This document shows positions 6,431 through 7,806 of a stretch of DNA of 20,000 bases, piece after piece. Position numbers and translations under genes: made by a program. The stretch is from an uncultured virus (IMG/VR IMGVR_UViG_3300008261_000015) (taxonomy: Duplodnaviria; Heunggongvirae; Uroviricota; Caudoviricetes): IMG/VR virus record IMGVR_UViG_3300008261_000015. One strand, written 5' to 3'. How positions within the stretch are numbered: position 1 is the first letter of the stretch; each line of letters opens with the position of its first letter. The notes beneath the pieces were generated by a model. The model was not told the DNA's origin. It made no database searches and was given only the letters and a program-made list of their open reading frames with translations.

Positions 6431-6592
6431 TTATTTATTTGCATGAATTTTTACTAAGTATTCATTCACTATATCCTTAATCATAACCTCTTTATCCTGA
6501 CTATTCACATAGCAAAATAGACCGTCAATAGTTGCAGTGCTGTAGTGCTTGATTAACCAGTTTAGAAATAGTCCATAATCATTCGCCTTCAT
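6431..6592 (-). CDS. Hypothetical protein (MKANDYGLFLNW...)
   Basis: Internal ATG at 6592 overlaps the end of the upstream gene. Confidence 0.6.
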   Translation of the reverse strand: MKANDYGLFLNWLIKHYSTATIDGLFCYVNSQDKEVMIKDIVNEYLVKIHANK

Positions 6593-6818
6593 AAACTTCT
6601 TTGTAGTATTCTTCAAACGCAACGTGAGAATCAAAAGGCGTATAGTAATGAGTGTCTGTAAAAGCATCCTTCATCTGCTCCTTCTCCATTTCTTTTGCTG
6701 GGTAAAAAAGATTATGTTTCATTATAAGAAAATCTGTAGGAGAAATTTGTTTTGCTTCATACTTTTCAAATAAAGAATTAACTTCTTTTTCATACCAATC
6801 TACTGCTGTCTGTTTCAT
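6579..6818 (-). CDS. MKQTAV-family small protein, copy 2
   Basis: MKQTAVD...AKEMEKEQ...YYKEVYE; paralog of the adjacent ORF. Confidence 0.8.
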   Translation of the reverse strand: MKQTAVDWYEKEVNSLFEKYEAKQISPTDFLIMKHNLFYPAKEMEKEQMKDAFTDTHYYTPFDSHVAFEEYYKEVYEGE

Positions 6819-7015
6819 AGTTCTTCGTATGTTTCTTGATAGTATGTTTCTGAATTTACGTATTTCTTATTATCATATTTACCCTCGATGAAAGCCGTTC
6901 TTATCTGCTCTTGTTCCATTTCTTTGGCTTCATTTAAAATGCTATTCCAAACAAACTTATCCTTTGGTGCTTCCCATAGTTTAGTAAATAACAAATCAAC
7001 CGCTGTCTGTTTCAT
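6815..7015 (-). CDS. MKQTAV-family small protein, copy 1
   Basis: MKQTAVD...AKEMEQEQ...YYQETYE; start at 7015 forms an ATGA overlap with the upstream stop. Confidence 0.8.
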   Translation of the reverse strand: MKQTAVDLLFTKLWEAPKDKFVWNSILNEAKEMEQEQIRTAFIEGKYDNKKYVNSETYYQETYEEL

Positions 7016-7203
7016 TTGACTATCTCTTTTAGCTGATTCCAAATATTAATTTGGTTCTCTCCCCAGTACATGTCACACTTACCATCCTTGATTGGTGGAC
7101 TCATAAAGTAGGATTGCCTATACTCATTGGGAGTTGCCGTGAACCTATAGCAGGATTCTTTGTGGGGACAATCTGTCCCTACGCACATTGTGATATCAGC
7201 CAT
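7012..7203 (-). CDS. Cys-rich small phage protein, possibly metal-binding
   Basis: MADITMCxGxDCPxKESCYRF...C pattern with four Cys. Confidence 0.75.
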   Translation of the reverse strand: MADITMCVGTDCPHKESCYRFTATPNEYRQSYFMSPPIKDGKCDMYWGENQINIWNQLKEIVK

Positions 7204-7332
7204 GATTTTTTATAATGTTAAACATGTTTTACAAAAACTGCCAAATTGTAAAATATATTTTACTTTTGGCAACTTATCTAATAAAGTGCCGAAATATAGT
7301 GGTCGCAATTTTCGATCGCAAATTATGGCAAA

Positions 7333-7461
7333 TTATTCAAATAAGTCTTCCCCGTTGTAGTCAGGATAGTTTTTATGCATTTTATCAATGCCTCTGACCC
7401 AAAGAAATGAAATGACTGAGGAGATAATTAAGATAACTCCAATTACTATTAAATTTCTCAT
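7333..7461 (-). CDS. 42-aa membrane peptide
   Basis: Hand translation MRNLIVIGVILIISSVISFLWVRGIDKMHKNYPDYNGEDLFE*; A-rich leader just downstream of the tRNA. Confidence 0.6.
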   Translation of the reverse strand: MRNLIVIGVILIISSVISFLWVRGIDKMHKNYPDYNGEDLFE

Positions 7462-7478
7462 ATATGTTTATGTTTATG

Positions 7479-7550
7479 AGCTCCCTCGAGGAATCGAACC
7501 CCGTTATTCTGAGTACAAATCAGACGCATCACCATTTATGCTTAGGGAGC
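7479..7550 (-). tRNA. tRNA-Thr (anticodon UGU), CCA not encoded
   Basis: Acceptor stem GCTCCCT/AGGGAGC; D arm GCAT-AAATGGTG-ATGC; anticodon arm TCTGA-TT(TGT)AC-TCAGA; T arm CGGGG-TTCGATT-CCTCG. Confidence 0.92.
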
Positions 7551-7614
7551 AGTGCTCGTCTTTCCGAGCCGTCAACATTTTAACACAAAAGCCACTGGAA
7601 AGCACTGGCGACTT
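7551..7614 (-). ncRNA. Candidate structured RNA in the tRNA 5' leader
   Basis: Two hairpins with complementary loop sequences (CTTTCC / GGAAAG); see findings. Confidence 0.45.
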
Positions 7615-7644
7615 AGTTTAACATAACCCAAAATGAAAACTTCA

Positions 7645-7806
7645 CTACTCATCATCAAAATCTGTAATAATATCTCTAAGGAGTCGTATAGCATGTTTGC
7701 ACTTCTTAATGGACTCCTCTTTATCGTGATCCATCATGAGTTCATACAACTCATCTATGCAATTGTGAAGTTCTTCAATACAGAAGATAATGTACGACTC
7801 TCTCAT
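7645..7806 (-). CDS. Hypothetical 53-aa acidic helical protein
   Basis: Hand translation MRESYIIFCIEELHNCIDELYELMMDHDKEESIKKCKHAIRLLRDIITDFDDE*; ATGA overlap with the upstream gene. Confidence 0.65.
   Translation of the reverse strand: MRESYIIFCIEELHNCIDELYELMMDHDKEESIKKCKHAIRLLRDIITDFDDE

Follow-up and report, generated by a model that had tools for sequence, protein, structure and literature searches.

The leader of a phage tRNA-Thr gene within the window (the whole 20,000-nucleotide stretch of viral DNA that was analysed) consists of two independent RNA cassettes, A and B, that are neighbours by chance. Judged by sequence comparison, element B, which lies next to the tRNA, is an uncatalogued and very widespread small RNA module, and element A is a second, clade-specific one. 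The original prediction had joined the two as a single two-state or kissing-loop element; its more general proposal, a dedicated structured RNA without an Rfam family directly 5' of a tRNA, is supported, and the joint element is not.

The minus strand from 7614 to 7551 reads exactly as it was quoted, and tRNA-Thr(UGU) begins at 7550 (7478..7550, minus strand, CCA not encoded). Read towards the tRNA on this strand, the leader comprises element A (7591..7629), an unconserved A/U-rich linker (7575..7590), element B (7554..7574, a single copy in the window) and an unpaired spacer of 3 nt (7551..7553), for which homologous loci have 3-8 nt. The nearest protein gene upstream of element A is a 53-aa ORF without a PHROG family (7645..7806, minus strand), part of a same-strand gene run that also codes for a primase, a helicase and an endonuclease. 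The gene content of the window is phage-like: upstream on the same strand it has those three genes as well as exonuclease VIII and Erf-like ones, and DNA near-identical to it comes mostly from freshwater metagenomes. As the sole match in an Rfam scan of the window was the tRNA, no family covers the leader element itself. The contig from RNA run X19 spans 7634-7806 only, with the element outside it, and is uninformative on expression. Elsewhere in the window, positions 7278-7476 behind the tRNA form an exchangeable cassette, related contigs linking 7277 to 7477 via different letters, and 7212-7277, a block without coding sequence, is conserved and has promoter-like matches. Three short tandem ORFs at 6431-7042 (minus strand) share sequence motifs, two of them starting MKQTAVD, and are apparently a small paralogous family.

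Both predicted hairpins are present in the minimum-energy fold, with pair probabilities of 0.97 and 0.86 when the tRNA is attached, and hairpin 2 does end 3 nt ahead of the tRNA. None of 200 shuffles folds as well as hairpin 2, while the stability of the full 64-nt stretch is not unusual (z -1.36). Hairpin 1 had been drawn with a 9-nt loop, but because two further pairs form within those nine bases its predicted loop is CUUUC (7602-7598); the hairpin is real, and it forms the 3' half of a larger conserved element whose start, at 7629, lies beyond the range first given. CTTTCC and GGAAAG are complementary as letters, but hairpin 2 uses the first G of GGAAAG in its stem, and five rather than six loop-loop pairs are therefore open. 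The folding was done with ViennaRNA, whose scoring leaves kissing and pseudoknot contacts outside. The 10-bp helix put forward as the alternative state is possible on paper, but its best fold is 5.8 kcal/mol worse (-12.8 vs -18.6 kcal/mol) and none of its pairs exceeds a probability of 0.023; an analogue of this helix was found near B in none of the listed contexts.

Element B, hairpin 2 with its 5' flank, follows the pattern UGRCR, a 4-5 bp stem and a GAAAGA loop; in the window the 5' strand UGACG occupies 7574-7570, the stem has 5 bp and the loop lies at 7564-7559. The exact 20-mer occurs at at least 119 loci in viral contigs, and, the scans being samples shaped by their search patterns, all copy counts given here are minimum values. 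When three stem positions were left free, all three paired in 116 of the 123 unique phage matches listed, with C-G, G-C, U-A, A-U and U-G pairs observed among the matches listed. This is the unbiased pairing count; the rows of alignment A1 were chosen for full pairing, so its pair counts are circular. In the chance-rich genome collection, 53 of the 121 matches listed were paired at all three positions, and the unpaired ones lay mostly within long reading frames (38 of 46, vs 10 of 31 paired ones, among the matches listed). A search for the hairpin only returned, among the matches listed, UGACA, UGGCA or close variants in the five preceding bases, with the flank G retained in 90 of 93 and the flank C in 92 of 93. 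A search for flank and stem gave 109 loops among the matches listed: GGAAAGAC in 50, GGAGAGAC in 14, about a dozen insertion or substitution variants, and a remainder that is apparently unrelated. These loop variants fit GNRA or GNRNA folds plus two bases (GAAA 50 and GAGA 14 of the 109 listed loops, and one-base insertions).

Across phages, hairpin 2 covaries with its flank and loop fixed. The element acts as RNA and not as DNA: among the 203 listed contexts described below, 60 tRNAs near B lie on the same strand and none on the opposite one, and non-Watson-Crick stem positions favour U-G (12, vs 3 for C-A or A-C, among the matches listed). B has a single helix of 4-5 bp, and the flank G and C and the loop GAAAG are the same in all 24 tmRNA copies and nearly every phage copy; the bases of a candidate strand-loop contact are thus themselves invariant, and covariation therefore carries no information on that contact. 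Against Rfam 15 at gathering score, only tmRNA overlapped B, at 2 of 80 B loci, and the hammerhead and HEARO hits were neighbours with no overlap. Two ordinary explanations were rejected: a T precedes TGACA in only 30 of the 123 matches listed and a steady -10 box was not seen by eye, as regards a sigma-70 promoter, and a U-tract follows in 30 of the 203 listed contexts, as regards a terminator.

Occurrences of B span phages of Proteobacteria, Bacteroidota, Bacillota and cyanobacteria, and include Bacillus and clostridial contexts; phages T4, T5 and crAss001 gave no match, nor did E. coli MG1655 under strict filters. From at least 323 fully paired instances we kept 203 contexts with independent flanks. 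A tRNA lies within 150 nt in 46 of these 203 listed contexts, roughly three quarters being without one. The claimed linkage to tRNA 5' ends stands in part, for hairpin 2, with a tRNA starting 3-8 nt after B in 25 of the 203 listed contexts (33 with relaxed ARAGORN); the anticodons are many and different, and the gap varies in length and has no fixed sequence. An ORF start is found 6-40 nt downstream in 49 of 169 matches listed, vs 17 of 167 in the control, and the tail after B is A/U-rich and unpaired. In contigs related to the window, a similar tRNA-Thr again follows B at 3 nt, and in two runs the stem of B is compensated and its loop longer by one base; two other related tRNA-Thr leaders are without B. 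As the tRNAs of T4, T5 and crAss001 are also made without it, B is dispensable for tRNA maturation. A neighbouring 108-aa ORF was rejected as a guide to B, with no B near any of the 43 loci found through it.

Among named phages, P1 has B between its trnI and ban genes, mEp390 has two copies in its leftward operon, phiEt88 has B after a Q-like gene, and further copies occupy non-coding regions of PhiPLPE and of Vibrio, Bacillus and Stenotrophomonas phages; the records examined hold 1-5 copies each and no inverted pairs. In P1 (L642:2350-2525, trnI-ban) and mEp390 (L643:2165-2310) B is the last part of a longer RNA-like element that has conserved blocks and no annotation. DNA similar to this longer element is present in 2017 of 5426 E. 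coli genomes; it had no Rfam match, and no description of it was found in the full-text literature search. The crAss phage cr272_1 carries five copies, four of which follow a RAGATH-1 hammerhead ribozyme at a spacing of about 115 nt in a 1.5-kb non-coding region (L282:1400-2900). A 322-kb viral contig (L179:600-990) also has five, with four in a 78-bp tandem repeat that runs up to a terminator-like hairpin. One B copy is 50 nt 3' of a HEARO hit; at L219:601-911 and L404, a HEARO/omega-type RNA with no adjoining nuclease ORF in view is followed by B and an apparent IS200/605-type end.

Element A (7629-7591), of which hairpin 1 is the 3' half, consists of a conserved 5' block, a variable insert of 0-5 nt and a 22-nt core containing the hairpin (7609-7591). 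The core is identical in 29 loci, which represent 18 distinct contexts and follow several different genes; this invariance is partly built in, as the search patterns demanded most core letters and would miss diverged copies. One hairpin is predicted, a conserved partner for the 5' block was not found by eye, and within the hairpin a single pair changes from G-C to G-U and nothing covaries. A is confined to related freshwater phages; cultured phages gave weak chance matches only, 14 A loci matched no Rfam 15 family, and three further pattern hits proved unrelated. Hairpin 1 was rejected as an intrinsic terminator, since a terminator scan found none and most relatives have no U-run after it, as was a distant site complementary to the A loop in 4 of 5 A-bearing genomes, which lies within a protein gene on the other strand. 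Within a few bases after A, the 18 contexts have a tRNA or tRNA-like unit (9), a terminator-like hairpin (6) or B (3). Some of these units are long (about 70-135 nt), with normal acceptor and T arms and a swollen middle, and occur directly after A (L683, L685, L692, L698, L700-L702, L705, L707) and also after B (L012, L052, L100, L108, L166, L195); most are missed by ARAGORN and score weakly as tRNA in Rfam.

The two elements come and go separately. A precedes B in the window (L693), L697 and L682 only, with linkers of 16, 26 and 27 nt, and five A-bearing phage records, four of them at least 95% complete, have one A each and no B. Where the locus is syntenic with that of the window, L692 lacks B but carries A, and in L682 both elements precede a tRNA-like unit other than the window's; with L697, these loci show A, B and the tRNA unit exchanged separately. 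Hairpin 1 is invariant also where hairpin 2 is absent. The joint pattern of both hairpins had no match in viral contigs, and the 80 nt upstream of B contain a complement of its loop, the CTTTCC partner of the original prediction, at chance level (3 of 201 listed contexts; shuffle mean 2.3, maximum 7). From the absence of B in the five A-bearing genomes, the co-occurrence in 3 of 18 contexts and the chance-level complement, we concluded that A and B are independent. The complementarity of CUUUC and GAAAG at this locus is most likely a coincidence, although a local A-B contact may exist within this small clade.

B was also found outside phages, after two genome hits fell within tmRNA. In a sample of 40 tmRNA loci from one actinobacterial class, of which 32 were parsed, 9 loci (8 distinct in that region) contain exactly three tandem B copies in the pk3/pk4 position (L444:171-552, L448, L672, L675, L714-L718), and the other 23 have ordinary pk3/pk4. 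This type of tmRNA departs from its relatives in helix 2 and pk1 sequence as well. Among the 24 copies in the 8 distinct tmRNAs, UG(A/G)C and GAAAG are kept in all and a 3-bp stem is fully paired in 23. The closing pair is G-C in 11, U-A in 4, C-G, A-U and G-U in 1 each and mismatched in 6, a pattern that favours a loop of six bases and leaves the 5' strand and GAAAG as the invariant core. A covariance model hit B in 2 of 61 genomes of this class; built on 5-bp phage copies, it misses most of the 4-bp tmRNA copies. No other tmRNA scores above cut-off in the genomes with a B-triple tmRNA, an argument against self-cleavage and against dependence on a phage protein. The pk3/pk4 region is described in PMC4236655 as maintaining the overall fold.

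The reading we favour, at a probability of roughly 45% and thus tentatively, is that B is a non-cleaving compact fold that would mark and protect junctions in multi-part RNAs. In this reading B is self-contained and spans about 21 nt, an unpaired UGRC strand leading straight into a short stem with a GAAAGN loop at its tip. The invariant 5' strand may fold back onto the loop to yield a compact knot, for example a mini-pseudoknot in which an extruded G from a GNRA-like GAAA turn pairs with the invariant C. Phages would place such a knot at transcript junctions, before an RNase P site, before a ribosome-binding site or at the ends of non-coding RNAs. At a tRNA it would fold at once, preventing mispairing between leader and tRNA, and leave a short single-stranded tail for RNase P; after cleavage it would shield the upstream RNA from 3' exonucleases. 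Element A, specific to its clade, is another module placed in a comparable position. Similar words occur in E. coli 23S rRNA, where UGACAG at 328 and GGAAAG at 307 lie in neighbouring loops of helices 19-20, presumably a T-loop module, and GGAAAGAC lies at 2056; there, both words are in hairpin loops and in reverse order, and as short words recur by chance this likeness is a lead only.

Strict conservation across phyla and tandem copies are not explained by a plain barrier alone, and a possible if less probable reading, by analogy, makes B a candidate docking site for a conserved host RNA-binding protein (S1, another OB-fold chaperone or a nuclease partner), which it would recruit to phage leaders, tRNA precursors and the tmRNA arc. 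Protein sites typically combine a freely covarying stem with unpaired bases that do not vary, as B does; the copies are both tandem and dispersed, and B is enriched before start codons. On the other side, what S1 would contribute at a tRNA leader is hard to see, and B also occurs in Bacillus and clostridial contexts, where S1 is reduced. The ligands of S1 include pseudoknots, such as pk2/pk3 of tmRNA and a 5' one that helps translation (PMC4236655, PMC7708055). The likeness to these RNAs extends to the three B copies that fill the pk3/pk4 region in 8 distinct tmRNAs and to several ordinary pk3 of the same class, which show AAGAC or GAAC, similar purine-rich letters, in a loop; unlike pk3/pk4, B is a single covarying helix whose second Watson-Crick helix is only proposed. 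A RegB/S1 site was rejected, PMC1702504 giving a single-stranded GGAG consensus with GGAA poorly cut. Compact folding and host-protein binding can both hold. Their boldest combination, which we regard as rather unlikely, would be a natural mini-pseudoknot of about 20 nt that recruits one conserved S1-like host factor in phages of many phyla and was put in three copies into tmRNA by one bacterial lineage, with A a second, unrelated solution for the same position that could itself be a 5'-side processing RNA.

Improbable, in our view, is the suggestion that B is a boxB-like or put-like antitermination or Rho-shielding signal for read-through of long untranslated phage regions. In the lambda nut site, boxB is a GNRA-like pentaloop bound by N, and B resembles it in its short stem, its purine-rich loop, its phage origin and its variants fitting GNRA and GNRNA folds; the boxB likeness first proposed for the loop stands to this extent. 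Some copies are early in operons (mEp390, PhiPLPE, phiEt88), and B recurs about every 115 nt through the crAss non-coding region. Unlike boxB, B has a six-base loop with two extra 3' bases and an invariant UGRC strand 5' of the stem. A boxA-like sequence within 40 nt at no more than 1 mismatch was found in 0 of 203 listed contexts (at 2 mismatches, in 16 listed contexts vs 34 for the antisense control). For most copies the position, too, is unlike that of a nut site, some lying in mid-tmRNA or at the 3' ends of units. N-boxB pairs diverge between phages, whereas B has the same letters in phages of many host phyla.

Three further readings are very improbable. A two-state or kissing element made of hairpins 1 and 2 that gates RNase P at this tRNA would draw on CUUUC and GAAAG being complementary and adjacent here, in L697 and in L682; against it stand the rarity of A before B, the A-bearing genomes without B, the chance-level complement, the energetic cost of the alternative helix and the absence of the joint pattern from viral contigs. 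We likewise give little credence to B, or A, being a self-cleaving RNA that makes tRNA 5' ends, as the original prediction had offered: the core of B is invariant and a hammerhead ribozyme neighbours it in crAss cr272_1, but self-cleavage leaves a 5'-OH, the gap to the tRNA is 3-8 nt without fixed sequence, and three copies sit in the single tmRNA of several genomes, an argument that concerns B and not A. B has only 21 nt, and we know of no natural ribozyme as small as that. The nested double pseudoknot of theta and HDV ribozymes has several helices, whereas B has one and A one predicted hairpin. Theta ribozymes are HDV-like and a precedent at the other end of the tRNA, acting, according to Kienbeck 2024 (PMC10879173), at phage tRNA 3' trailers and leaving 5' ends to RNase P; like B they are small structured RNAs fused to phage tRNA genes, and unlike them B lies 5' of the tRNA, is 21 nt long with one helix and a variable tRNA gap, and has no Rfam ribozyme match. 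Finally, a single-stranded DNA site for a REP-like, HUH-type nuclease that shuffles cassettes is scarcely credible: B has the tetranucleotide-plus-hairpin layout of REP and IS200/605 ends, one copy lies between a HEARO hit and an apparent IS end, and cassettes at this locus are exchanged, but B keeps strictly to the transcribed strand (60 to 0), unlike REP and IS200-605 hairpins with copies in both orientations, has 1-5 copies per record without inverted pairs, and is retained within tmRNA.

Like the phage candidate structured RNAs described before (Weinberg 2010, 2017; Fremin 2023), which are covarying, intergenic and often near tRNAs or upstream of genes, the elements lie between genes, frequently close to tRNAs or ahead of genes, and B covaries; unlike those, A and B are not covered by any Rfam 15 family, except for tmRNA as the host of B. 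A full-text search, covering running text rather than figures and mostly open papers, found no description of A or B. The supplements of Fremin 2023 (PMC10690425) gave no hit in the files within scope, two large files, possibly with alignments of the motif, lying outside it; in those of Weinberg 2010 (PMC2864571), none of the 13 matches in file 5 and of 2 examined among 8 in file 4 is the B hairpin; and GGAAAGAC was not found in the supplements of PMC12286853.

A 21-nt module with near-fixed unpaired bases is thus found in phages of several host groups, among them the textbook phage P1, and as a triple substitute for a tmRNA pseudoknot region, and such a spread points to a basic fold or a conserved host partner, overlooked so far because usual screens do not suit so short a motif. 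Its size suits NMR, binding and reporter tests, and the B-triple tmRNA is a ready assay of what the pk3/pk4 arc requires. If the mini-pseudoknot reading is true, B would be among the smallest autonomous RNA folds. It would also flag non-coding RNA regions in phage genomes.
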